In this document: positions 1,476 through 36,240 of the stretch, one piece after another
Position numbering within the stretch: the stretch's first letter is position 1
Layout: each line of letters starts with the position of its first letter
Source: Isurus oxyrinchus
Taxonomy: Eukaryota
DNA: 64,000 nucleotides
Assembly (NCBI GenBank): GCA_026770705.1
Contig: JANJGN010000071.1
Location: 2,232,001 to 2,296,000, forward strand
Direction: 5' to 3'
Program-made: the position numbers and the translations under genes
Notes under the pieces: model-generated
What the model was told of the DNA's origin: nothing
Seen by the model: the letters and a program-made list of their open reading frames with translations, nothing else
The model's database searches: none

Positions 1476-1862
1476 TTGGACTGTCACAAGAGTGGAAAGG
1501 TGACACTCCACGAGAGGTGACAGCGCAGGAAGGTTCGTGTGTACAGATTCCATGTCATTACAGTTATCCAGCACTTCTAGTAGGGAGAGCACGTGTTGGA
1601 ATCTGGTATGTGAAATGGTACACATGGAATACATGGAATACAAGGTCTAGAGGGACCATAGCATTTCACTCCAAGGATCACAGTCACGAGTTACCACGGT
1701 TCCACCATCGGACCCGGCTGTCTGGAGACCTGAAAGATGGCGGCTGTTCCCTGATTATAAACAACATCAGACGGGAAGATGAAGGATATTATTATTTCAG
1801 AATAGAATTTGACAATGGTCCGAGCCATAACTATTACCCTGTAACCCAGCTTCAGGTTTCTG
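1476..1862 (+). CDS. Siglec-like gene A, V-set Ig exon 1 (V1)
   Basis: AG acceptor ends at 1475, GTAAGT donor at 1863; 387 nt, phase 1-1. GSCVQIPC...GIW...LSGDLKDGGCSLII...EDEGYYYFRIE. Siglec hallmarks: B- and E-strand Cys, extra pre-B Cys, no F-strand Cys, essential F-strand Arg. Confidence 0.93.
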
Positions 1863-2089
1863 GTAAGTGCTGTGTTATAATTACTCAACAATTCACATCC
1901 AACACTCAATGGGAAATAATAGTGTTTGATTTGCTTGTTTTTTGGCCGTGTTAACCAGCGTCACTATTTTTAATGATTTGTCTATTTCTGCTCCCAGATC
2001 CATGAGCTTATTGTGTGTGATTGAATCCACATCATAGCTGTAACGTAAACTGAGCGGAGGGGTGATGACACCTCCCCCCTGAGTGAAGT

Positions 2090-3492
2090 GTCTCCTCCCC
2101 ACTACACCTTCCACCCCTCACACTGTCCGTGTAAACCCCCGTCCCATCTCCAGCCTCTCTTTCCCCTCCAAAGTCATTGAACGTGTTTCCATCTCCCGAA
2201 TCTGTTCCCATCTTTCCCGGAACTCCATGTTTGAATCCCTCCAATCAGGTTCCCACCCCAGCCACTGTGCTGAAACAGCTCTTATCAAGGTCACAAATGG
2301 CATCCTGTGTGACTGTGACAAAGGTCAACTTTCCCTCCTTGTCCTTCTCGATCTGTCTGCAGCCTTTGACATGCTCGACCACACCATCCTCCTCCAACAC
2401 CTCTCCACTGTCGTCCTGCTGGGTGGGACTGCTCTCCCCTGGCTCCATTCTTATCCATCTCATCGTAGCCAGAGAATCACTTGCAATGGCTTTGCAGCAT
2501 CATCTGAACAGTGTTAGTTTTCACCTGTCCACTGAGGATCCCCAGCTCTACCTCACCACCACCTCTCTCGACTCCTCCACTGCTGCTAAATTATCAGGCT
2601 GCTTATCCGACATCCAGTACTGGATGGGCAGAAATTCCCTCCAATTAAATATTGGAAAGACTGAAGCCATTGTCTTCATTCCCCGCTCCAAACTCTGTTC
2701 CCTCGCTACCAACTCCATTCCTCTCCCTGGCAGCTCTCTGAGATTGAAGCCAATCTGTTCACAGCTTTGTTGTCCCATTTGATCCTGAGATGAGCTTCCG
2801 GCCTCATATCTGCGCCCTCACTAACACCGTCTATTTCCACCTCCGTAACATCGCAAGACTTCACCCTGTCTCAGCTCATCTGCTGCTGAAACCCTCATCC
2901 ACGCCTTCATTACCTCCAGACTCGACTGTTCCAACACACGCTCTACACTCCATAAACTTGAGGCCATCCAAAACTGCTGACCACGTCCTTACTCACACCA
3001 AGTCCCATTCCCTTATCACCCGCTCTGCTCGATGACCGAGACTGGCTCCTGGTCAAGCAAAGTCTCAATGTCCAAATTTTCATCTTTGTTTCCTCACTAT
3101 CTCTGTAATCTCCTCGTCCTCCTCCAGTACCTACAACCATCCCATTCTCTGTAACCTCTTCAAGCCTCTGCTGCTTCTCTATATCTGTAAATTCATCCTG
3201 CACAACAAACCTACCAATCTCTGCAACCTCCTCCAGCCACTACAAACCTCTCTATCTCTGCAAACTCCTCCATACCCTACACTCTCCCAATCTCTCTTAA
3301 ATTTTCCAGCCCCTACAACCCTCCCTATCTCTGTAACCTCCTCCAGCCCCTCCAACCCTCTGAGGTCTCTGTGCTCATCCAATTCCAGCCTCTTGACCAT
3401 CCCCCGGTCCCATCACTCCAACATCGGCGGCCGTGCCTTCAGCTGCCTGGGGCCCGAGCTCTGTAATACCCTCCCTCAACCCCTCTCTGTCC

Positions 3493-3526
<34 letters not shown>

Positions 3527-3720
3527 ATCTCTATCTCTCTCTCTCTCACTATCCATTTCATCCCTCTTTGAAGATTCTCCATAACACCGACCTCTTCTGG
3601 CCAGCTGTCGCTAATATCTCCACATGTGTCTGGGTGACATACTTTGTTTTATGACGCTCCTGTGTAGCACCTTGGGGTGATTTGTCATGTTAAAGTTGTT
3701 GTGTAAATATAAGTTGTTGC
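2090..3720 (+). mobile_element. L2-clade LINE fragment (RT + 3' tail, with internal 37-bp minisatellite)
   Basis: RPISSLSFPSKVIER...QSG...ETALIKVTN...LLDLSAAFD..DHTILL; frameshifted. Confidence 0.85.
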
Positions 3721-4264
3721 CCTTTGACCCTCAACCCCAGCTTGAGTCTTATTTTTGAGGGAATGTACAACCTCCTTAGATTTCTGACCAAAATGTCATT
3801 TGATTATTTTTATTGAGCGAATGCCAAGCCCCGATACCGAGTGAGAGCCTCCTCATTTGCGGAGTTTAAGGTGATGAGTCAGCACCTTAGTCCGTAGAGG
3901 GGATTCTCCTCGGTAATGTGCAGCCTTGTTTGTGTCTCTCCACAAGCGCATGAGGGGTTTGTACAGAGGCTGCAGTGCTGGAGGGGGTCTGCACAGGGGT
4001 CCTGGCCTGTCCTGAGCCGGTTTTAGCAAGGACCACTCTGGCCTTGGCAGCTGAAAGCAAGCCATTGGACAGACGGGGCCTGTCACAAGGAGCCTGTTAG
4101 TCACTCCCCACCGTGTCTCCTGTGCTCGGATCCAGACCATGTTGGCTGGTGGATCTGGCTCAGGATGGGTCCTCCCCATGGGACCCCCAGATGGAAGGTG
4201 GGTCGAGCGGGTCAGTCACTTGCATGTTTATTCTGCAGCTTTAATATTTTAAGAAGGTAAGATT

Positions 4265-5095
4265 GTAGGAACATAAGAAATAGGAACAGGAGCAGGCCAT
4301 TCGGCCCCTCGAGCCTGCTCTCACTGATCTGGTTGTGGCCTTAACTCCATTTTCCTGCCTGTCTCCCAAACCCTTGACTCCCTTGTCGATCAAAAACCTG
4401 CCTCACTCAGCCTTGAGTCTATTCAATGGCCCAGCCTCCACTGCTCTCTGGGGAAGAGAATTCCACAGGCTAGCGCCCCTCTGAGAGAGGAAATTCCTCC
4501 TCATCTCAGTCTTAAATGGGAGAGCCCTCATTCCGAAACTGTGCTCCCTGGTTCTAGATTCCCCCACGAGGGGGAAACATCCTCCCAGCATCCACCCTGT
4601 CAAGTCCCCTCGGAATCGGATATGTTTCAGTAAGGTCACCCCTCATTCTTCTAAACTCCAATGGATACAGGCCCAACCTGCTCAACATTTCCTCACGGGA
4701 CAAACCCTTTAATCCCAGGAATCAGCCCAGTGAACTTCCTCTGAACTGCCTCCAATGCAGTGTCTATCCCTCCCTAAGTAAGGAGACCAGAACTGTACAC
4801 ACTGCTCCTGATACAATCTCACCCTGTGCAGCTGTTGCAAGACTTCCCTCCTTTTATACTCCATCCCTTTGCAATAAAGGCCAACATTCCACTTGCCTTC
4901 CTCATTCCGTGGTGTTCCTGAATGCTGACTTTCTGTGATTCATATACAAGGACACCCAGATCCCTCTGTACTGCATTCTGCAGCCTCTCTCCATTTAAAT
5001 AATATCCTGTTTTTCTATTCTTCCTGCCAAAATAATTTGTTGCAGTCCTCCTCAGTATTGACCATCCCCCCAATTCAGCCTCATCTGTAAATTTG
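4265..5095 (-). mobile_element. CR1 LINE 3' fragment (duplicate at ~19590-20430)
   Basis: Minus-strand YYLNGERLQ..QRDLGVLV...FKTEMRRNFLSQR...LWNSLPQ. Confidence 0.85.
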
Positions 5096-5150
5096 AGTCT
5101 GGTGGATCCACAAACCATCCAGAGTTAAATATTGAGATTTCTCTCCCCAG

Positions 5151-5519
5151 TTGAACCCTCACAAGAGTGGAAAGGTGACACTCCACGAGAGGTGACAGCG
5201 CAGGAAGGTTCGTGTGTACAGATTCCTTGTCATTACAGTTATCCATCGTGTCTGGAAAACCAACCGCGAGGTGGACTCTGGTTTAATAATGAGAAACAGA
5301 TTCCCTGGGCTCCCATTGCCTTTCACTCCAAGGATCACAGTCACGAGTTACCACGGTTCCACCATCGGACCCAGCTGTCTGGAAACCTGAAAGATGGCGA
5401 CTGTTCCCTGATTATAAACAACATCAGACGGGAAGATGCAGGACCTTATTTTTTCAGAATAGAATTTGACAATGGTCCGAGCCATAACTATTACCCTGTA
5501 ACCCAGCTTCACGTTTCTG
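5151..5519 (+). CDS. Siglec-like gene A, V-set Ig exon 2 (V2)
   Basis: CCCCAG acceptor, GTAAGT donor, 369 nt open, phase 1-1; GSCVQIPCHYSYPSCLEN...PYFFRIEF. Confidence 0.92.
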
Positions 5520-6333
5520 GTAAGTGCTGTGTTATAATTACTCTAACAATTCACATCCAACACTCAATGAGAAATAACGCAAACTGTGACGTTTACATAT
5601 TAACACAAAACACAGCTTATTATAGCACACTGTCTGATTCTCAATAACCTGGTGATAGCTCCCAGTTCAGTCCTAAAGCAATGTCTAATACTCACTTTAA
5701 TATCAATGATTAAATGTATTGACTGTGTCCATCAATGTTATCAGGTTATCCACTCCCATCGATCTCCCTAACCCTGTTTGACAGTCTTACATATCGACAA
5801 AAGAAAGATTCGCATTTCTATAGCGCCTTTCAACACCTCTGTACGTTGCAAATGGTTTCACAACCAATGAAATAATTCTTGAAATGTTGCCCTTGTTGTA
5901 ATATGGGACACACAGCAGCCAATTTATTCACAGGAAGCTCCCAGAAACAGCAATGTGATCAATAACCTGATCATCTGTTTTAGATGCCGGTTCAGTGATT
6001 GGTTCAAATGGATTCTCTCCTGCTGGGAACAGGATAGAATTTAAATCTGGCAGATTTCGGAGAAAGTAACAAGCCAGTGTGTCAGGAACTGTGAGCTGCT
6101 CCCCCACCCTCACCTGGGATTGTCAGTTCAATTGTCTCAAAGTGGAAGTGAATTCATCTGAGAGACAGAAAATCCACTAAGTCTGAAAATAGGAAATTCT
6201 CTCCTGATCATTGTAATCTCTCAGTTCTGATATCATCCTTGTAAAAGTGCTTTCTCTTGTGGGACTGTGGTTTCTATTTGAACTGATGCTTCACGTTATA
6301 TTTCTCTAAAAGGATCCATTCTCTGTCTGTTAG

Positions 6334-6626
6334 ATTTCACAGATAAACCCACGATATTCCCTGCTGAAATTATCGCAGGAAAGCGTGTGGATGTAAGCTG
6401 CACCTTCAACACAACGTGCAATGGAACAGCAGCACCTGTCTTAACCTGGGACACTCCCACTGACCTGGATCAGTCTCAAACACTGTAACTCAGCATGGTG
6501 TCACTCTGATCTATACTTCTGTTCTGACCCTGATCCCATCACTCAAACACCACGGACACACTCTCAGCTGCAGAGTGAGATATCCATCTGTTTCATCGGA
6601 GCGGACCCTTGTACTAACTGTACAAG
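6334..6626 (+). pseudogene. Gene A first C2-set exon with 4-bp frameshifting deletion
   Basis: 293 nt versus 297 nt in paralogue 21666-21962 (ACTGACCTGG vs ACTGACGTACCTGG); premature TAA at 6486-6488; splice sites intact. Confidence 0.85.
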
Positions 6627-6949
6627 GTAAGTACCGACACCTTTCATTCTACATCAGCACTCCCTCAGCGCTGACCCTCTGACAGTGCAGCCCGTTCTCA
6701 GTATCTACATTCTCAGACCTCTCAAAGTGCTTCACAGTCGATAGAAGTTAACTGATCTTTATTTGATTATTGCTGAATGAAGAGACAATCTGCCTAAACT
6801 TTACAGCTCGCACACATTATTTTCCATGGCAACACCGCCTCCAATCAGAGACCACTTGCCAATCAATCAGCACTCTCTTCCCATTAAATATAAATTGTTG
6901 TTCACTTCCTGTTGGGAAACCAGTGATCTGTCATGTTGAGTCCTGCCCT

Positions 6950-7102
6950 GACATCTGAATATCACAATGAACAGAACAAGTTCCAACAATGAGCTGTGGT
7001 TGGGGATTCCTCACGTTACATCCAGGGACACTGGAGACTATCAGTGTGTGGCAGAGAATGAACATGGAGCGTTGGAGGGTTTCATAACCATCACTGTGGA
7101 AC
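6950..7102 (+). pseudogene. Gene A remnant (3' half) of a second C2-set exon
   Basis: MNRTSSNNELWLGIPHVTSRDTGDYQCVAENEHGALEGFITITVE|GTGAGT nearly matches the 3' half of 26429-26710; 5' half and acceptor replaced by unrelated repeat-like sequence. Confidence 0.85.
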
Positions 7103-8220
7103 GTGAGTGTACACAGACTTCAACAGCTCTCTCAGATTCAAACACTACACAAACACATACAATTATACAAACCTAAATAGACACGTGCAGACACACAATC
7201 CCACATGTATGAGCACACAAAAGGACACACTCACAAACAAAGACACTAACAGATTCTCCCCCGTGGGTTACCTGACCTCCCTCAGTGCTGCACCGGAGAG
7301 TTGACATGGATTCTGGGAATTGTGTTCCCTTTCAAGTTTATGGAAGAACGCGGAAATTGCAAAGTCTATTAGACACCCAGATGCACAGAAATTCTCACAG
7401 ATACTCTCTGCCTCTCTAACTCTCTATCCTCCTTTAAAAAGCTTCCTGAAACCTAACCCTTTGACCAGTCACCTGTCCCAACTCCTCCTTATGTAATTCT
7501 GTGTGAAATGTTGTTTGAGTATCTGACAGTAAGAGAGAGATGGAGAGGTTTACGAAGAAATTTCTGTTGGTGAAAAGCTTACATCATGTTCTCACCTTTC
7601 CAGAGCCCATTTTGCACATGATGTCCAATGTCCAAGTTCATAATGGGGATTGCCTATGTAAACGTCACGCTGCAGTTACACTCTCCCACCAGTGGTGGCA
7701 CGGTAGCACTTAACCCTTGCATCTCCCAGCTTTTCAAGCAATTTCACTTCCCAATTTGCTACTATTCACCTCAACCACTCCCTGTGGGAGCGAGTTCCAC
7801 ATTCTCCCCTCTCTCTGGGTAAAGATTGGAACTGTTTATTAAGTGGGGGGTGTAAGTCCGTGAGGGAGTCCATCTCGATCCTGCCCGATTCACACACGCG
7901 TCCGAGATGGATTTCCACCCTGCACTAAACGTTTCCAGAATTTTCTACAGCACAATCCTGTACACAGCGATGGAGAGAAACATTGGACAGGGAGTCCAAC
8001 AGCACAATGATCCATTCTCACCAATGTTCCACGCTAAGGGGAAAGTTCCGATTGTCCACTCTTAGAGTGTTTACAATGAAAACATTCATTCCACATTGAA
8101 TCCCAGTGGATGGGTCAATATTACAGCAAATGTTGCAGTGATATGAAGCTTGATTGTTCAGCCAGAGTGAGAGATTGAAAGCGGAGAGTCAGTGATGATT
8201 TTTTTCTGTGTGTTCTCTAG

Positions 8221-8360
8221 ACAGTGGAGGAGAGATTCTGCACGTGATCCTGATCCTGGGAATACGAGCTGTGATATTCCTTGTGGCTGTGGTTATCACT
8301 ATCGCTGGAGTCTGTGTCTGGGAGAGACAAACAGTGAAAGGAAGTCGACAGACTGTTTAA
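8221..8360 (+). CDS. Gene A transmembrane exon with intramembrane Arg and short tail (activating-type receptor)
   Basis: Polypyrimidine tract + TAG acceptor at 8220. Read in phase 1: SGGEILHVILILGIRAVIFLVAVVITIAGVCVWERQTVKGSRQTV*. Arg codon 8265-8267, no Tyr motif. Not in the ORF track in this frame. Exon 3' end uncertain. Confidence 0.78.
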
Positions 8361-11590: not shown

Positions 11591-11630
11591 ATGATCGGGA
11601 AATCTTACTTCCTCCTGTCACTTCTCCAAG
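11591..11630 (+). CDS. Siglec-like gene B signal-peptide exon
   Basis: MIGKSYFLLSLLQ(G)|GTAATA, phase 1; acceptor TTTCAG at 11548; joins V1 in frame (VGLSQEW). Confidence 0.85.
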
Positions 11631-16911: not shown

Positions 16912-17289
16912 TTGGATTGTCACAAGAGTGGAAAGGTGACACTCCACGAGAGGTGACAGCGCAGGAAGGTTCGTGTGTACAGATTCCATGTCATTACAGT
17001 TATCCATCAGATTTGGTAAAGAAACCACAGGTCGGAATCTGGAAAATGAGAAGATACATACAGAACAAATGGTCTAAATGGTCTATAGCCTTTCACTCCA
17101 AGGGTCACAGTCGCGAGTTATCACAGTTCCACCATCGGACCCGGCTGTCTGGAGACCTGAAAGATGGCGACTGTTCCCTGATTATAAACAACATCAGACG
17201 GGAAGATGCAGGACCTTATTTTTTCACGATAAAATTTGGCAATGGTCCGAGCCATAACGTTTCCCCTGAAACCCAGCTTCACGTTTCTG
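16912..17289 (+). CDS. Gene B V-set exon 1 (essential Arg replaced by Thr)
   Basis: 378 nt open, AG/GTAAGT, phase 1-1; ...PYFFTIKFGNGPSHNVSPETQL. Confidence 0.92.
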
Positions 17290-20485: not shown

Positions 20486-20854
20486 CTGAACCCTCACAAG
20501 AGTGGAAAGGTGACACTCCACGAGAGGTGACAGCTCAGGAAGGATCGTGTGTACAGATTCCATGTCATTACAGTAATCCATCGTGTCTGGAAAACCAACC
20601 GCGAGGTGGAGTCTGGTTTAATAATGAGAAACAGATTCCCTGGGCTCCCATTGCCTTTCACTCCAAGGATCACAGTCACGAGTTACCACGGTTTCACCAT
20701 CGGACCCGGCTGTCTGGAGACCTGAAAGATGGCGACTGTTCCCTGATTATAAACAACATCAGACGGGAAAATGCAGGACCTTATTTTTTCAGAATAGAAT
20801 TTGACAATGGTCCGAGCCATAACTATTACCCTGTAACCCAGCTTCACGTTTCTG
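20486..20854 (+). CDS. Gene B V-set exon 2 (Arg retained)
   Basis: 369 nt open, AG/GTAAGT; ...PYFFRIEFDNGPSHNYYPV. Confidence 0.92.
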
Positions 20855-21665: not shown

Positions 21666-21962
21666 ATTTCACAGATAAACCCACGATATTCCCTGCTGAA
21701 ATTATTGCAGGAAAGCGTGTGGATGTAAGCTGCACCTTCAACACAACGTGCAATGGAACAGCAGCACCTGTCTTAACCTGGGACACTCCCACTGACGTAC
21801 CTGGATCCGTTTCAAACACTGTAACTCAGCATGGTGTCACTCTGACCTATACTTCTGTTCTGACCCTGATCCCATCACTCAAACACCACGGACACAATCT
21901 CAGCTGCAGAGTTAGATATCCATCCGTTTCATCGGAGCGGACCCTCGTATTAACTGTACAAG
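21666..21962 (+). CDS. Gene B C2-set exon 1 (Siglec domain-2 type)
   Basis: 297 nt; DFTDKPTIFPAEIIAGKRVDVSCTFNTTCNGTAAPVLTW...LSCRV; carries the BC-loop Cys used for the Siglec V-C2 interdomain disulfide. Confidence 0.92.
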
Positions 21963-25510: not shown

Positions 25511-26428
25511 AGTGGGGGGTGTTCGTGACCATCAGTGTGGAAGGGTTAGGTTTACAGGTTACACAGACCAGACACACACCAACAGACACACACACACATG
25601 TAAGCACGCACATTCACACGCACATGCTCACACACACAACACACACACGCACACACACACGCACACACACACACACACACACACGTAAGCACGCACANNN
25701 NNNNNNNNNNNNNNNNNNNNNNNNNNNNNNNNNNNNNNNNNNNNNNNNNNNNNNNNNNNNNNNNNNNNNNNNNNNNNNNNNNNNNNNNNNNNNNNNNNNN
25801 NNNNNNNNNNNNNNNNNNNNNNNNNNNNNNNNNNNNNNNNNNNNNNNNNNNNNNNNNNNNNNNNNNNNNNNNNNNNNNNNNNNNNNNNNNNNNNNNNNNN
25901 NNNNNNNNNNNNNNNNNNNNNNNNNNNNNNNNNNNNNNNNNNNNNNNNNNNNNNNNNNNNNNNNNTGTGCAGAAACGCAAACACACACACACACACGTGT
26001 GAGTTCCCTCTCCTCGCTCAGGGCTGCACTGGAGTCTCGGTGTCAGCTCCAATTCTGTGCTGAAGGAAGGTAAACTCCAGATCAGCAAGACCCTGAATTG
26101 GATGAGCAACCTCCTGAACAGAGAATGGTAGATTTACCCCTCAGTGCTCCATCGATCAAATACAATTCATTGCCTGTCAAGCCCTTGGGGACATCCTGAG
26201 GATGTGAAAGGCAGTTTCTTTAAATCTGGATGGACAGGGTCTCTGGTGGGAGAATGCTCCTGCAGTGTGACAGTTTACATAGGCAGTGCCCATTGTAAAT
26301 GTGACATAGGAACTTATCTTGAGAGAAGGTGCCTAGAAATGCACACAGGCATCAGTTACAGCGAGATGATACAGGAAGTTTTGCTGTGCACTGTGTTTGC
26401 TCACATTAAAATCTTTATATATTTTTAG

Positions 26429-26710
26429 ATGGACCACAGAATCTCTCAATTAATTCTCTTGATATGATTAACGCTTCATCGGTCAATATAATTGAGGGGA
26501 ATTCTGCAGTGATAATCTGCTCTGTCGAGAGCTTCCCAGCTTCTAACCTGACGTGGCGACATCTTAATGTCCCAATGAACAGAACAAGTTCCAACAATGA
26601 GCTGTGGTTGGTGATTCCTCACGTTACATCCAGGGACACTGGAGACTATCAGTGTGTGGCAGAGAATGAACATGGAGCAGTGGAGGGATTCATAACCATC
26701 ACTGTGGAAT
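26429..26710 (+). CDS. Gene B C2-set exon 2
   Basis: 282 nt, TTTTAG/GTGAGT; DGPQNLS...EGNSAVIICSVESFPASNLTW...DTGDYQCVAENEHG. Confidence 0.92.
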
Positions 26711-28586: not shown

Positions 28587-28862
28587 ATCCCCCACAGGAG
28601 ACGATGGTGTCCATCAGCAGATCCTCAGGTGGGATAAGAGAGGGAAGCAATATCACATTAACCTGCTCCAGTGAAAGTGTCCCACCGATATCTCATTACA
28701 CCTGGTTCAGGATCGAGGGGAACACCAGCACCCAGTTAAACACAAGTAGCCGCACTCTCTCCTTCACTCCTGTAACACGGGAGAATGATGCAGGTTTCTA
28801 CTGCACAGCGAGGAACCCAATGGGTAACAGCACCTCCAACATCACCCACCTGAACGTACAAT
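28587..28862 (+). CDS. Gene B C2-set exon 3
   Basis: 276 nt, TTCCAG/GTAAGC; YPPQETMVSI...EGSNITLTCSSESVPPISHYTWF...DAGFYCTARNPMG (CD22/sialoadhesin-type repeat). Confidence 0.92.
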
Positions 28863-29892: not shown

Positions 29893-30186
29893 ATAAGCCG
29901 GAGATTTCCCAGCAGTCGGAGTGCACTCGGAGGTCAGAGGGGGTCACCTGCGTCTGTGTGGCCAACTCCAACCCACCCGGAGACCTCACCTGGCACCTGC
30001 CCAGTGCCAACATCAGTGGTAACCAAAAAAACGGAGGTTTTGTGTCGTGGCAGGTCAGAGATGGGCATCTGGTGACTGGTTCCCTCACCCTGATGAGACC
30101 CCAGGATGAGGGGGGAGTGATGGCATCCTGCTCGGTTCAAAACCCACACGGGGAAGCCATGTTCAAGATGTATCTGTGGGTCAAAG
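29893..30186 (+). CDS. Gene B membrane-proximal C2-set exon 4
   Basis: 294 nt; YKPEISQQSECTRRSEGVTCVCVANSNPPGDLTW...SCSVQNPHG; C-x8-CxC pattern of MAG domain 5 and the last domain of Siglec-5/10/11. Confidence 0.9.
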
Positions 30187-31070: not shown

Positions 31071-31167
31071 GTAGAGACTCCAGTAAATGGACAGTAGGAT
31101 TGTTCACGGCTGGGATCATGTTGAGTGTTTTCCTGGCTGGAATCTTCATCTTCATCTGTGTGAGAAA
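31071..31167 (+). CDS. Gene B transmembrane exon (uncharged)
   Basis: TTACAG/GTAAGT, 97 nt, phase 1-2; GRDSSKWTVGLFTAGIMLSVFLAGIFIFICVRK. Confidence 0.9.
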
Positions 31168-31890
31168 GTAAGTCTGAAGATTTAACTTGATTTTAATATA
31201 AACATTTGTTTAGGATTAATTGGACAGTTTTTACAAAGGGCCAGCACAGGCACGATGGGCTGAGTGGCTTCCTCCCGAGCTGTGAGATTTTAAATTCTTT
31301 CATCGAATGTGACTGTCACTGGCGTGGCCAATACTAATTGCCCATTCCCTAAATGCCCCTTGAGAATGAGGTGGTGAGCTGCCTTCTTGACCCGCTGCAG
31401 TCCATGTGGTGTAGGTACACCCACAGTGCTGTTAGAGAGGGAGCTCCAGGATTTTGACCCAGCGACAGTGAAGGAACGGTGATATATTTCCAAGTCAGGA
31501 TGGTGAGTGACTTGGAGGGGAACTTCCAGGTGGTGGTGTTCCCATGTGTCTGCTGCCCTTGTCCTTCTAGATGGTAGAGGTCGTGGGTTTGGAAGGTGCT
31601 GTTGAAGGAGCCTTGCTGAGTTGCTGCAGTGCATCTTGTATATGTTACACACACTGCTGCCACTGTGTGTTCGTTGTGGAGGGAGTGAATGTTTAATGTG
31701 GTGGATGGGGTGTAGATCAATCGAGCTGCTTTGTCCTGGATGGTGTCGAGATTCTAGATTCTGTGCTTTGTGCAGAAGTGATTTAAAGAGACAGTCCAGT
31801 CATTGGTGTAAGGTTACAGTGGGCTCTGTGTCTGTGCTGCACTGACTCTTTGCTATGTGATAACCACAGTGTGATATTGTGTTATTGCAG

Positions 31891-31972
31891 GAGAAAGACA
31901 GCGATGGAGGAGAGAGTTTCAGGGACCAGTGACATTGCATTGACCCCCAGTTCACTCTCTGTGAAGCACCAG
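31891..31972 (+). CDS. Gene B cytoplasmic exon 1a
   Basis: TTGCAG/GTACAG, 82 nt, phase 2-0; RKTAMEERVSGTSDIALTPSSLSVKHQ. Confidence 0.85.
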
Positions 31973-33024
31973 GTACAGGAGCTGTTTACACTCACTCCAA
32001 AGCTTCAATCTCAGTGTGTAGACAACACATGTCCCAGATTCCCTGCCCAGTTACCCACTGATTTGTACCTGTGGAGTCAGCAATGGTTCAGTATCATGCT
32101 GTCTCTCTGTTATGACACAGCAACTGGTAAAGGCTGTTGTTTAAAAACCCAGAGGGAAACTTTAAACAACTGTCATAACCTATACTTCCCAGTGGAATGT
32201 TTGAGATGCATCTCTAAATTCAGGAATAAGACCACCAGTTCTGGAGATGGGTTTATATCAAACTAAATGAGACATATATTAATTTACACAAGTTAAACAT
32301 ATGCACATGGTTACAAACTAGTATTATCATAACTTTTTAACAAATTCTCAAACTAATCTCCTCTAAGACAACCCATAGTCTTTAAGCAGATTCCAGGCAT
32401 TTTCACCTCACAAGTTCCAGTTTCTCTCTCTATCTCAACCTCCCTTTCTTTCTCTCTCTTTCTCTCTCTCTCATCCTCTCTCTGATTACAAGGTGCATGT
32501 TAATGAGCTTCACACCAGAAACTTGAGTGAAGAATCCAAGCCGTCACTCACCAGAGCCATTACCGAGGGAGTGCGAGACTGACAGCGGGTCAGTACTGAG
32601 GGAGTGCTGTACTGTTGGAGGGTCAGTACTGAGGGAGAGTTGCACCGTCGGAGGGTCAGTACTGAGGAAGCGCTGTACTGTCGGAGGGTCAGTACTGAGG
32701 GAGCGCTGCACCATCGGAGGGTCAGTACTGAGGGAGCGCTGCACTGTCAGAGGGTCAGTACTGAGGTTTTTGCTGCGCTGTCGGAGGGTCAGTACTGAGG
32801 GAGTGCGAGACTGACAGAGGGTCACTATTGAGGATGTGCTGCACTGTTGGAGGGTCAGTCCTGAGGGAGCACTGCACTGCCATAGGTGGTTTCTTTCATA
32901 AGACATGGGAGAGAGAGTTAAACCCACTGAGACACGACTGACATTAACGAAGCTGCACAATAATTTAACCCTATCAGTGCCAGTAAATGATGTGAGGATG
33001 TCTTCTGTTTCCATTTCTCTGTAG

Positions 33025-33273
33025 GGTAAACAGAACGTGCTGATTACTGAGCCCCGGAACACAACCAGAGACACAACTAGCGAGGGGGAGACCCCAACTC
33101 CCCGGGGTCTCTCTGAAGGTGCAGTGGGAGGCGATGCTGGACTTGGGAACCCCGGCAAACCTGAAGAGTTTCTCTACGCCAATCCCCAAGTTTTGAGGGT
33201 GTCCAGTGGTGATGGGTCTGTCCACAGGGAAGAGGAGACGGAATACGCACAGATCAGGTTTGAGCATAACTGA
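33025..33273 (+). CDS. Gene B terminal cytoplasmic exon 2a (degenerate ITIM FLYANP + ITSM TEYAQI)
   Basis: CTGTAG acceptor, 249 nt to TGA; AATAAA at 33798-33803. Confidence 0.85.
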   Translation, partial: GKQNVLITEPRNTTRDTTSEGETPTPRGLSEGAVGGDAGLGNPGKPEEFLYANPQVLRVSSGDGSVHREEETEYAQIRFEHN

Positions 33274-34420
33274 ATGAGAAATGGGGACTGGGAGTGAGGA
33301 GGAGTGGGCGTGGGGGTAGGGATTGAGATTCCTGGGAACAGGAAACAACCCACTGGGGGAGAGGGGGAGAGAGGGAGGAAGGGATGGAATTGGGCTACGG
33401 TTGGTGTGGTTTGGAATGAAATGCTTCTCCAGAGAGGACTGGATGCTGAGCCATTGGGGAGTGAGATTCACTGTCTCTCTCTCTCTCTCTCTCTTCCTCT
33501 CTGTCTCTCTCTTTCTTTCTGTGTCAGTCTCTCATTCTCTCTCTCTTGCTCCTCCTTTAAGATGACCGTTAATGACTGACTTTGATGACTCAGCTGTTGG
33601 TCTCCTGTCCCTAATATCTCCTCATGTGCCTCAGAGTCAGGTGAAATGTGACTAACAATCCCCGGATGAGCCTTGGGACATTTTGCTACATTGAAGGTGC
33701 TATATAAATGCAAGTTGTTGCAGTAACTCTGATCTGCTTCTATTAACAATGGAACCACAGAGGTTCCTTCGACAGGGCGTGTGTGCAGCAGGGTCACAAT
33801 AAATACATTGAGCTGTGAGATTTTTCATTCTTACATCGAATGTGGCTGTCACTGGTGATGTCCGCATTGATGCCAATCTCTAACTGCCCTTGAGAAGGTG
33901 GTGGTGAGCTGCCTTCTTGACCCGCTACAGTGCATGTGGTGTAGGTACACCCACAGTGCTGTTAGAGAGGGAATTCCTGGATTTTGACCCAGCGACAGTG
34001 AAGGAACGGTGATATATTTCCAAGTCAGGATGGTGAGTGACTTGGAGGGGAACTTCCAGGTGGTGGTGTTCCCATGTGTCTGCTGTCCTTGTCCTTCTAG
34101 ATGGTAGAGGTCGCGTATTTGGAAGGTGCTGTTGAAGGAGCCTTGCTGAGTTGCTGCAGTGCATCTTGTAGATGGTACACACACTGCTGCCACTGTGTGT
34201 TCATGGTGGAGGGAGTGAATGTTTAATGTGGTGGATGTGGTATGGATCAATCGGGCTGCTTTGTCCTGGATGGTGTCGAGCGTCTTGATTCTGTGCTTTG
34301 TGCAGAGGTGATTTAAAGAGAGAGTCCAGTCATTGGTGTAAGGTTACAGTGGGCTCTGTGTCTGTGCTGCACTGACTCTCTGCTATATGATAACCACAGT
34401 GTGATATTTTGTGATTGCAG

Positions 34421-34502
34421 GAGAAAGACAGCGATGGAGGAGAGAGTTTCAGGGACCAGTGACATTGCATTGACCCCCAGTCCACTCCCTGTGAAACACC
34501 AG
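34421..34502 (+). CDS. Duplicated cytoplasmic exon 1b
   Basis: Near-identical to 31891-31972 with the same phases; RKTAMEERVSGTSDIALTPSPLPVKHQ. Confidence 0.8.
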
Positions 34503-35991
34503 GTACAGGAGCTGTTTACACTCACTCCAAAGCTTCAATCTCAGTGTGTAGACATCATATGTCCCAGATTCCCAGCCCAGTTACCCACTGATTTGTACCT
34601 GTGGAGTCAGCAATGGTTCAGTATCATGCTGTCTCTCTGTTATGACACAGCAACTGGTAAAGGCTGTTGTTTAAAATCCCAGAGGGAAACTTTAAACAAC
34701 TGTCGTAACCTATATTTCCCAGTGAAATGTTTGAGATGCAGCTCTAAATTCAGGAATAAGACCACCAGTTCTCAAGATGATTTTATATCAATCTAAATGA
34801 GACATTTATTAATTTTCACAAGTTAAACATATGCACATGGCTACAAACTAGTATTATCATAACTTTATAACAAATTTTCAAACTTATCTCCTCCAAGACA
34901 ACCCATAGACTTTAAGCAGACACCAGGCAAAGCATTTTCACCTCACAAATTCCAAATGAGGCTCCTTTCACTTTGGTTCCTTTGCAGACAAGTGTAGGAT
35001 TACAGCTGCTTTGCTGTTACAAGCCTCTGCTCTGCACACACAAAACTGCACAAGTTATACCCAGCTCTTGAGTGTGAAGAAGATGGAGATTGATGGGCTC
35101 TTGATTGGTAAAGGGATCAATGGTTAGGAGAGAAGGTGGGAGAATGGGGTTTGTGAAACATATCAGCCATGTATGAATGGTGGAGCAGACTCGATGGACC
35201 GAATGGTCTAATTTCTCCTCCTATGTCTTATGGTCTTATGGCTTCTGTTTGAAGGTAAATTCGCAATGTATCATCAGGACCTTTGAACTCCATCTCTTCC
35301 AATCCCCTTTCATCGTATCAATTTTATTAGTAATATAAACGTTGATTGGTTTAAGATTTCAATCTCAGACTTTGAATGTTTTATTTAAAAATACAAATTA
35401 CCACTTTACCTCTTTGTTTACATCTCAAAACTACTATACATCAAAGCACACAGACTGGCTGTCTTTAATCCAATTTAAATACACACAGACACACACACAG
35501 ACTAAACCTCTGTTTAAAAAGACAGTTTGCATTTATAATACAAACATTAATAGATTAATAACACTCTGTCTCTATCCCTCCTCTATCTCTCTCTCTCATC
35601 CTCTCTCTGATTACAAGGTTCATGTTATTGATCCTCACACCAGGCACCTGAGTGCAGAATCCAAGCCGTCACTCACCAGAGCCATTACCGGGGGAGTGGG
35701 GGACTGACAGCGGGTCAGTACTGAAGGAGTGCTGCACTGTCGGAGGGTCAGTACTGAGGGAGTGCTGCACTGACAGAGGGTCAGTACTGAGGGAGCGCTG
35801 TATTGTCGGAGGGTCAGCACTGAGGGAGTGCTGCACTGTTGGAGGGTCAGTACTGAGGGAGTGCTGCACTGCCATAGGTGGTGCCTTTTATCCGATAGGA
35901 GAGAGAGAATTAAACAAGTCTGCACAATAATTTAACCCTATCAGTACCAGTAAATGATGTGAGGATGTCTTCTGTTTCCATTTCTCTGTAG

Positions 35992-36240
35992 GATGAACAG
36001 AACGTGCTGATTACTGAGCCCCGGAACACAACCAGAGACACAACTAGTGAGGGGGAGACCCCAGCTCCCCGGGATCTCTCTGAAGGTCCAGTGGGAGGCG
36101 ATGTTGGACATGGGAACTCAGACAAACCTCACGAGCTTCTCTACGCCAACATCAACTTTTCAAAGCTGCCCGGCGGTGACAGGACTGTGCACAGGAGCGA
36201 GGACACGGAATACGCACAGATCAGGTTCCAGAAAAACTGA
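35992..36240 (+). CDS. Duplicated terminal cytoplasmic exon 2b (ITIM LLYANI + ITSM TEYAQI)
   Basis: CTGTAG acceptor, 249 nt to TGA; ITIM/ITSM pair as in CD33-related Siglec tails. Confidence 0.85.
   Translation, partial: DEQNVLITEPRNTTRDTTSEGETPAPRDLSEGPVGGDVGHGNSDKPHELLYANINFSKLPGGDRTVHRSEDTEYAQIRFQKN

Follow-up and report, generated by a model that had tools for sequence, protein, structure and literature searches.

Among described receptors, the mammalian CD33-related Siglecs (Siglec-3/CD33, -5, -7 and -9) come closest to the gene analysed here, sharing its V-set and C2-set ectodomain, uncharged transmembrane (TM) segment, proximal ITIM and distal ITSM, a likeness drawn from domains and motifs. 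The accessible part of PMC10906256 gives the strict ITIM consensus as (V/I/L/S)xYxx(L/V) and that of the ITSM as TxYxx(V/I), and the accessible part of PMC8631942 gives a motif spacing of 25 residues in PD-1/BTLA, with Ala at pY+1 favouring SHP-1. Searches of open-access text, a scope that mostly leaves out subscription journals, yielded no paper on a large shark Siglec-like cluster, and the accessible parts of PMC4227790 and PMC13262535 held nothing further on shark Siglecs.

The gene lies on the forward strand of a 64,000-nucleotide window of the Isurus oxyrinchus assembly. Its leader exon (11591..11630; ATG at 11591, phase-1 donor) was placed by a tblastn match to the leader of P0004/P0030 and is followed by two V-set exons (16912..17289 and 20486..20854), both matching the Pfam V-set and Ig_CD22 families (PF07686 and PF24518 in the first). 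Four more Pfam-supported Ig exons come next, the first of the C2-set (21666..21962), then 26429..26710, 28587..28862, which is joined to the following exon in a contig of public run X18, and 29893..30186, before a single uncharged TM exon that ends in phase 2 (31071..31167). An N-terminal V-set followed by C2-set domains is the Siglec layout. The outermost V-set carries Thr in place of the essential F-strand Arg, and the gene is therefore classed as Siglec-like only. In the second V-set the Arg is retained: sequence and structure-hit alignments place its FRIE on the FRVE of Siglec-5, three Cys align with Siglec-5 Cys, and the best solved-structure matches are Siglec-5, MAG and CD33 with near-equal E values (1.7e-13 to 5.4e-13). 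Judged by these domains, the gene is a Siglec-like receptor gene, for which binding of sialylated glycans is a prediction only.

Behind the TM exon, a two-exon cytoplasmic cassette occurs twice, open and with intact splice sites, as an earlier sequence-only reading of this DNA had proposed. Self-alignment delimits cassette a (31277..33809), which begins where an interspersed repeat of the TM intron ends, and the terminal cassette b (33810..36240); the stretches 31277-32419 and 33810-34954 are 93.0% identical, and overall the two cassettes differ by 7-14%. Exons 1a (31891..31972) and 1b (34421..34502) both run from phase 2 to phase 0, so that joining them in series shifts the frame, again as had been read. 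Exon 2a (33025..33273) encodes FLYANP (33169-33186) and TEYAQI (33238-33255), and exon 2b (35992..36240) encodes LLYANI (36136-36153) and TEYAQI (36205-36222), a tail type seen across other sharks; Pfam holds no family for either exon 2, and the tail is likely disordered. The early claim that exons 2a and 2b are alike at their 5' ends and diverge 3' is borne out: over the first 120 nt, 27-29 of the 30 nt in each bin match, and beyond that point 18-26 do. An AATAAA (33798..33803) stands just before the junction at which the duplicated unit starts again at 33810, also as described; it comes from a type-c UTR whose downstream sequence was replaced 6-7 nt past the hexamer. Candidate hexamers of cassette b lie at 37399..37404 and at 37317. 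The two UTRs had been called unrelated, and indeed they show no alignment between themselves, but both match the UTR of a third, terminal cassette type, c, each in a different part.

The motifs themselves qualify the signalling switch that had been suggested. With Pro at Y+3, FLYANP falls outside the ITIM consensus, which calls for a hydrophobic residue at Y-2 and an aliphatic one at Y+3, and the Ile at Y+3 of LLYANI lies outside the strict form. The wider ITIM consensus admits Ile at this position, and LLYANI fits it. TEYAQI agrees with the ITSM consensus in both cassettes, the ITIM-ITSM spacing in the tail is 23 residues, and pY+1 of the tail ITIM is Ala. Different tails on one ectodomain are probable, but the proposed contrast between SHP-1/2-recruiting and ITSM-only output is likely graded, because human Siglec ITSMs still recruit SHP-2 (accessible part of PMC10906256).

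The splice paths 1a-2a, 1a-2b and 1b-2b had been listed as the possible ones; all three are open, but the list is incomplete, since exon 2a contains an internal phase-2 donor (CAG|GTTTGA, 33255..33263, last exonic base 33257) that fits exon 1b in frame, and five open splice paths run through the TM-to-2b region. Used in this way, the donor gives an open 892-aa product with a 216-residue serial tail carrying four tyrosines. The donor matches the consensus at six of nine positions, with T at +3 and at +4, a score equalled by five of eight ordinary donors of the gene that were checked, and an in-frame internal 5' splice site of this kind is what characterises a composite terminal exon. Its use can be inferred from the gene models of relatives: among 174 retrieved proteins, 19 contain the serial join (10 from white shark and nine from basking shark; 11 loci by name), whereas none terminates at exon 2a's own stop, in models that are automatic RefSeq annotation and include one visible read-through chimera in basking shark (P0009). 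At one white shark locus, isoforms X1, X2 and X6 carry tandem tails, X4 runs TM-1b-2b, X5 runs 1a-2b, and the ITIM-less X3 passes from the internal donor to a different acceptor in 2b with an out-of-frame end, and so does not arise through the equivalent of the AATAAA at 33798. A predictor that maximises ORFs would not favour such an end, and X3 therefore counts for donor use. In the public runs, presumed to be RNA, the family is spliced at the TM-to-exon 1 and exon 1-to-exon 2 joints; the join 33257->34421 was absent from the 15 of 430 joints listed, and a search for short proteins across it gave no candidate, which is uninformative.

Conservation of the donor was considered as a sign of selection and dropped: its GT is kept in 100 of 100 type-a copies listed (of 113), with a +5 G forming part of the type-a definition, but AG|GT is also kept in 99 of 100 listed type-b copies; type c lacks the donor GT in 98 of 98. 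Three contig observations were likewise set aside. Depth over UTR a (intron level in X15, zero in X16) was unused, as contigs cannot rank gene parts, and so was a single X15 contig ending at 37413, just past the AATAAA at 37399. An X17 contig (33023-33422) that passes the donor unspliced and continues in UTR-a-like sequence was rejected as a terminal tail a, as its 47 differences fall in the range of type c (46-52) and not of type a (0-33) in this genome.

Across three contigs (C52, C71 and C121), 63 of 156 gene ends carry two to four cassettes and 93 carry one. A type-a cassette is followed by another within 4 kb at 70 of 71 places, the sole exception standing where a contig ends and being followed by a partial b, and no type-b or type-c cassette (0/155) has another after it; within the family copies examined, type a is always internal and the terminal types b and c never are. 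The census patterns miss variants, and for three of the 71 type-a places the type was assigned from position alone. Eleven places that looked like single type-c cassettes were fetched: one turned out to be a-c, and at another, on a different scaffold, an exon 2 stood alone. In the 3' half, type a lies much nearer to type c than to type b (p-distances 0.107 and 0.241), and the 5' halves are homogenised (0.05-0.07), in agreement with the recombination between cassette types that had been proposed as their origin. White and basking shark RefSeq models also carry tandem tails, and the layout has thus been kept across a family-level split; neither tandem tails nor Pro at Y+3 occur in any of 98 non-lamniform relatives, and rays have Leu at Y+3 of the ITIM position. 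Assembly-wide, about 254 gene ends of the inhibitory type and 213 TM exons of the activating type were counted, haplotype duplicates and pseudogenes still included. The family is spread over many unplaced contigs, some of which may be uncollapsed haplotypes, and its copies are young, often 94-100% identical.

The reading that we consider reasonably probable is a Siglec-like gene with a tandem tail, in which the donor of exon 2a joins the copies into the four-tyrosine tail and alternative splicing yields shorter ones. Exon 2a would then likely be a composite internal/terminal exon that is mostly spliced onward, with ITIM-less and other single-tail products as alternatives. One old duplication would have set the proline-type cassette, cut just past its AATAAA, ahead of a terminal cassette, and the shared 5' halves would later have allowed unequal crossing-over that altered the copy number and exchanged the terminal type (b or c). 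As such crossing-over cannot produce a solo type a, the absence of one would be partly mechanical. In the manner of composite terminal exons, the donor would usually win over the truncated poly(A) signal; the long tail, with one ITIM and two ITSMs for SHP-1/SHP-2, would remain inhibitory, and ITIM-less forms would rely on SHP-2 and inhibit more weakly.

The choice originally envisaged was instead one between mutually exclusive last exons: either tail a, closed by its own stop and AATAAA, or tail b. Exon 2a is open to its stop, the type-a hexamer persists (AATAAA in 43/48, AGTAAA in 5/48) with U-rich and GU-rich sequence behind it, and human immune cells often use intronic polyadenylation at composite exons, according to the accessible part of PMC5928244. 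The white shark isoforms X3, X4 and X5 do speak for different tails on one ectodomain, 1a-2b and 1b-2b being annotated among them, but either/or use as the main mode is quite unlikely given the 19 internal-donor proteins against none ending at the type-a stop, the missing terminal type a (0/71) and the replacement at the junction of the sequence past the type-c hexamer. An isoform cleaved at the intronic signal was likewise not found among the 174 proteins, the hexamer being present and run contigs being unable to show RNA ends.

The extra cassettes could also be neutral passengers of rapid duplication and gene conversion, any isoforms being splicing noise that adds no signalling function of its own. 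Crude pN/pS values in the tail exons (0.65-2.7, allele counts against a consensus, with no tree) give no purifying signal and no contrast between cassettes, being near or above 1, and the youth of the copies and the many single-cassette gene ends point the same way. So do nine a-c loci in which the 6 kb upstream contain neither a TM exon nor an exon 1 (still absent when four of them, plus one further locus, were extended), whose orphan cassettes are nearly all intact, with one stop (L084). We nevertheless hold this explanation to be improbable, in view of the tandem tails annotated in two further lamniform species, the intact exon-2 acceptors in 106 of 106 copies and a depletion of distinct indels in exons (1 in 547 nt against 15 in 1138 flank nt; P=0.016 pooled, each group alone not significant at P=0.064 and 0.17, and flanks partly overlapping). 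An assembly artefact, a possibility that had been left standing, is very improbable indeed: near-identical copies on unplaced contigs do exist, but a and b are too divergent for this at 7-14%, the same junction recurs in all 48 type-a copies examined, which are diverged, two other species have tandem tails, and the a-then-b layout is present in each of the 18 best-matching paralogues that were fetched (one cut by a contig end, one without a TM exon in the fetched stretch and one with a 1-nt deletion in 2b).

A bolder extension of the tandem-tail reading, which we regard as tentative and rather unlikely as a whole, would make the cassette a lamniform stackable module of one to four copies, in which an IgM-style contest between donor and poly(A) signal would select the long, ITIM+ITSM or ITIM-less tail per cell state, the YxN/YxxP site of the ITIM-less tail would recruit adaptors in place of SHP-1, and several hundred paired-receptor loci would take part. 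If the tandem-tail reading is true, an inhibitory family would set how strongly it signals through the number of tail copies and through within-gene splicing, besides the usual pairing with activating genes, and multi-ITIM tails would gain a simple, testable origin, in which an in-frame donor gained by a terminal exon turns it into a unit that can be repeated. The analysis also brings a very large shark Siglec-like cluster to attention.

Set against known systems, the nearest models are the lamniform RefSeq entries XP_041037215-XP_041037221 (white shark) and XP_078389744 and XP_078389619 (basking shark), which have the same tandem tail and internal donor, are automatic, and are named MAG-like, Siglec or uncharacterised; literature searches found no paper describing them. 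Compared with the mammalian CD33-related Siglecs, the shark genes differ in a tail arranged in one to four tandem cassettes with an internal donor, in the Pro at Y+3 of types a and c, in an outer V-set without Arg, and in the number of inhibitory-type gene ends given above. In the IgM heavy chain the donor lies within CH4. The IgM secreted/membrane switch likewise turns on an exon in which splicing from an internal donor to downstream exons competes with reading on for a few codons to a stop and using an intronic poly(A) signal (accessible part of PMC5928244), but both outcomes in the shark gene would retain the TM exon and differ in signalling motifs, under a regulation that is predicted. As with the paired Siglec-5/Siglec-14, the shark inhibitory-type genes stand among short-tailed genes with Arg in the TM exon; whereas pairing adjusts output between genes, the tail cassettes would adjust it within one gene.

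Forward-strand exons of the Siglec-like gene in the window (G000:C71:2232001-2296000, from a 4.98-Gb assembly) comprise a leader (11591-11630), two V-set exons, of which the outer, V1, lies at 16912-17289, four more Ig exons, a single transmembrane (TM) exon (31071-31167) and two copies of a two-exon cytoplasmic cassette, with exons 1a (31891-31972) and 2a (33025-33273) upstream of 1b (34421-34502) and 2b (35992-36240). By sequence reading, GT-AG borders occur at every intron, and a 268-base N stretch at 25698-25965, inside an upstream intron, is unreadable. Re-reading the sequence returned the four tyrosine motifs, the AATAAA at 33798 and the duplication junction at 33809/33810 where the sequence-only reading had placed them, as well as its frame clash between exons 1a and 1b in direct series. 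Pfam V-set and Ig_CD22 were matched by both V exons, and the top solved-structure matches of V2 were Siglec-5, MAG and CD33 with the essential arginine aligned; V1 has threonine where this residue is expected, the sialic-acid arginine being absent from the outer domain (16912-17289) and kept in the inner one. The V1-type exons of paralogues diverge strongly mid-domain. The gene is provisionally classed as Siglec-like only, and all 16 proteins retrieved with exon 2a came from white or basking shark (63-88% identity), which makes a lamniform shark the likely source of the window.

The sequence-only reading had listed the paths 1a-2a, 1a-2b and 1b-2b, a list that proved incomplete because it missed TM-1a-2a'-1b-2b, in which exon 2a ends at an internal donor. 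White and basking shark RefSeq models, automatic annotations whose read support is not visible, contain both cassettes in series, joined just past exon 2a's distal motif, and the window counterpart of this join is CAG/GTTTGA after 33257, in phase 2, the phase needed by exon 1b. This path is open, giving 892 aa and a 216-residue tail with tyrosines at tail positions 80, 103, 185 and 208. Tandem splicing of both cassettes is probably the main reading; an either/or last exon, tail a or tail b, is considerably less credible, given that 0 of 174 retrieved proteins stop at the type-a stop, against 19 with the donor join. Among white shark isoforms X1-X6, treated as one locus by names and consecutive accessions, X1, X2 and X6 are tandem, X3 is donor-to-2b and out of frame, X4 is TM-1b-2b and X5 is 1a-2b; X4 and X5 could be products of reads cross-mapping between near-identical exons. 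The X3-type path is open in the window gene (788 aa, stop within the last exon), and therefore the ITIM-less product formerly ascribed to last-exon choice stays plausible, through splicing.

Contigs from four public runs guessed to be RNA (X15-X18) were also examined, revealing exon 1-exon 2 GT-AG joints in X15 and X16, a TM-to-exon-1 loose end in X15, an Ig3-Ig4 splice in X18, and, in X16, X17 and X18, exon 2 of type b together with its UTR. This shows that the family is spliced as predicted, in contigs that cannot tell 1a from 1b, nor paralogues apart; the 15 joints listed, out of 430, do not include 33257-34421, which carries no weight for or against.

Across the assembly, the distal-motif 21-mer has 211 exact matches, many paired 3 kb apart, and typing of 60 loci distinguished three forms of exon 2: the proline motif marks a, which is internal, and c, which is terminal, and b, also terminal, is of the LLYANI type. 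Pattern counts were 113 for a, 98 for c and 156 for b. Of the 156 gene ends on three contigs with complete lists, 71 are b and 22 are c, 35 are a-c and 20 a-b, five are a-a-c, one each is a-a-b and a-a-a-b, and the last is a lone a cut by a contig end. These figures include 7 a places added from the 21-mer list, of which 3 were typed from position alone. There, type a is always followed by another cassette, the cut one aside, and none of the 155 b or c cassettes is. The same duplication junction occurs in all 48 examined a cassettes, which points to a probable single origin. With a layout so widespread in pairing, typed loci and junction, an assembly artefact is scarcely conceivable; the duplicated tail is real and lineage-specific. 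Immediately upstream of the window, the gene at L053+L054 (G000:C71:2200500-2219500) carries the cassette four times, as a-a-a-b, with AGTAAA instead of AATAAA in the first two copies, and on a 243-Mb scaffold L110 (G000:C2:177206300-177216200) is a solitary type-c exon 2 with UTR, exon 1 and TM being absent from the stretch fetched. Some paralogues vary within the motifs themselves: leucine replaces the distal Tyr in L046, Met replaces Thr at Y-2 in L042 and L052, a stop codon interrupts L084 at its proximal Tyr, and L104 is one of several with Thr at Y+3.

Neither Pro at Y+3 nor a tandem tail occurs in any of 98 relatives from non-lamniform sharks and rays, and the homologous tail, where present, is b-like; because of this, type b is, on sequence comparison, ancestral and the proline derived, which upholds the earlier description of the proximal motif as broken. 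Private decay was rejected, as the proline lineage comprises ~211 cassettes of types a and c, and some type-c genes have a single tail. The 3' half of type a lies 0.107 from c and 0.241 from b, the 5' halves are mixed (0.05-0.07), and its UTR is the opening part of the type-c UTR, ended 6-7 nt past AATAAA and followed by TM-intron sequence. One duplication may have produced an a-c or a-b arrangement, with unequal crossing-over within shared halves yielding the others. A third tyrosine motif in the tail exon-1 region occurs in carpet sharks, a sawshark and a skate, and is mostly absent from the window gene (31891-31972) and the examined lamniform relatives.

That the extra cassettes are neutral passengers is a minority possibility. 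Crude pN/pS of the tail exons is 0.65-2.7, and GT at the donor position is also kept in type b. Nine a-c loci have neither a TM exon nor an exon 1 in the 6 kb before them, and those extended further upstream still have none; such orphan pairs (L060, L070, L072, L075, L081, L084, L087, L089, L092; also L113) have been amplified many times, and since their cassettes are nearly all intact, open frames prove little about function in this family. Indels are fewer in exons than in flanks only when pooled (P=0.016; separately P=0.064 and 0.17).

Upstream, a forward-strand sister gene (1476-8357) has two V exons, a C2 exon (6334-6626) frame-shifted by a 4-nt deletion, an incomplete Ig exon (6952-7101) and, at 8220-8357, a TM exon that encodes an Arg and only a very short tail; its likely leader (L099) lies just 5' of the window start. 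The gene resembles a paired receptor of the activating type, broken or mis-assembled here. A 22-mer from the Arg-bearing TM exon matches exactly at 213 places (C52, C71, other contigs), scattered among ~254 inhibitory-type gene ends; together these form a cluster of paired Siglec-like genes that runs to several hundred loci, haplotype duplicates and pseudogenes still counted. At 47840-48187 (+) lies a V exon of another, divergent Siglec-like type, 87% identical to basking shark protein P0014 and truncated by a stop shortly before the F-strand end; this type also lies upstream of orphan a-c tails at three other loci.

We take LLYANI to fit the wider ITIM consensus only, and YxN in both proximal motifs and YxxP in type a to be putative Grb2-type and Crk/Abl-type sites, respectively. 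TEYAQI matches the ITSM consensus, and LLYANI lies outside the strict ITIM consensus in the available part of PMC10906256, according to which the Siglec-3 ITIM recruits SHP-1 and SHP-2, its ITSM mainly SHP-2, and Siglec-9 with a mutant ITIM still recruits both. In the accessible portion of PMC8631942, Ala at pY+1 favours SHP-1 and ITIM-ITSM spacing is 25 residues; in the window gene it is 23. From these motif data, inhibition would be expected of both the tandem tail and the b tail, and of an a-only tail a weaker output, not an opposite one. The partially available literature on Siglecs of cartilaginous fish, or on tail duplication, yielded no paper on shark tandem Siglec tails; such tails are already in automatic RefSeq models. 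The tail would work like that of a CD33-related Siglec, and its exon layout resembles the composite terminal exon as excerpted from PMC5928244.
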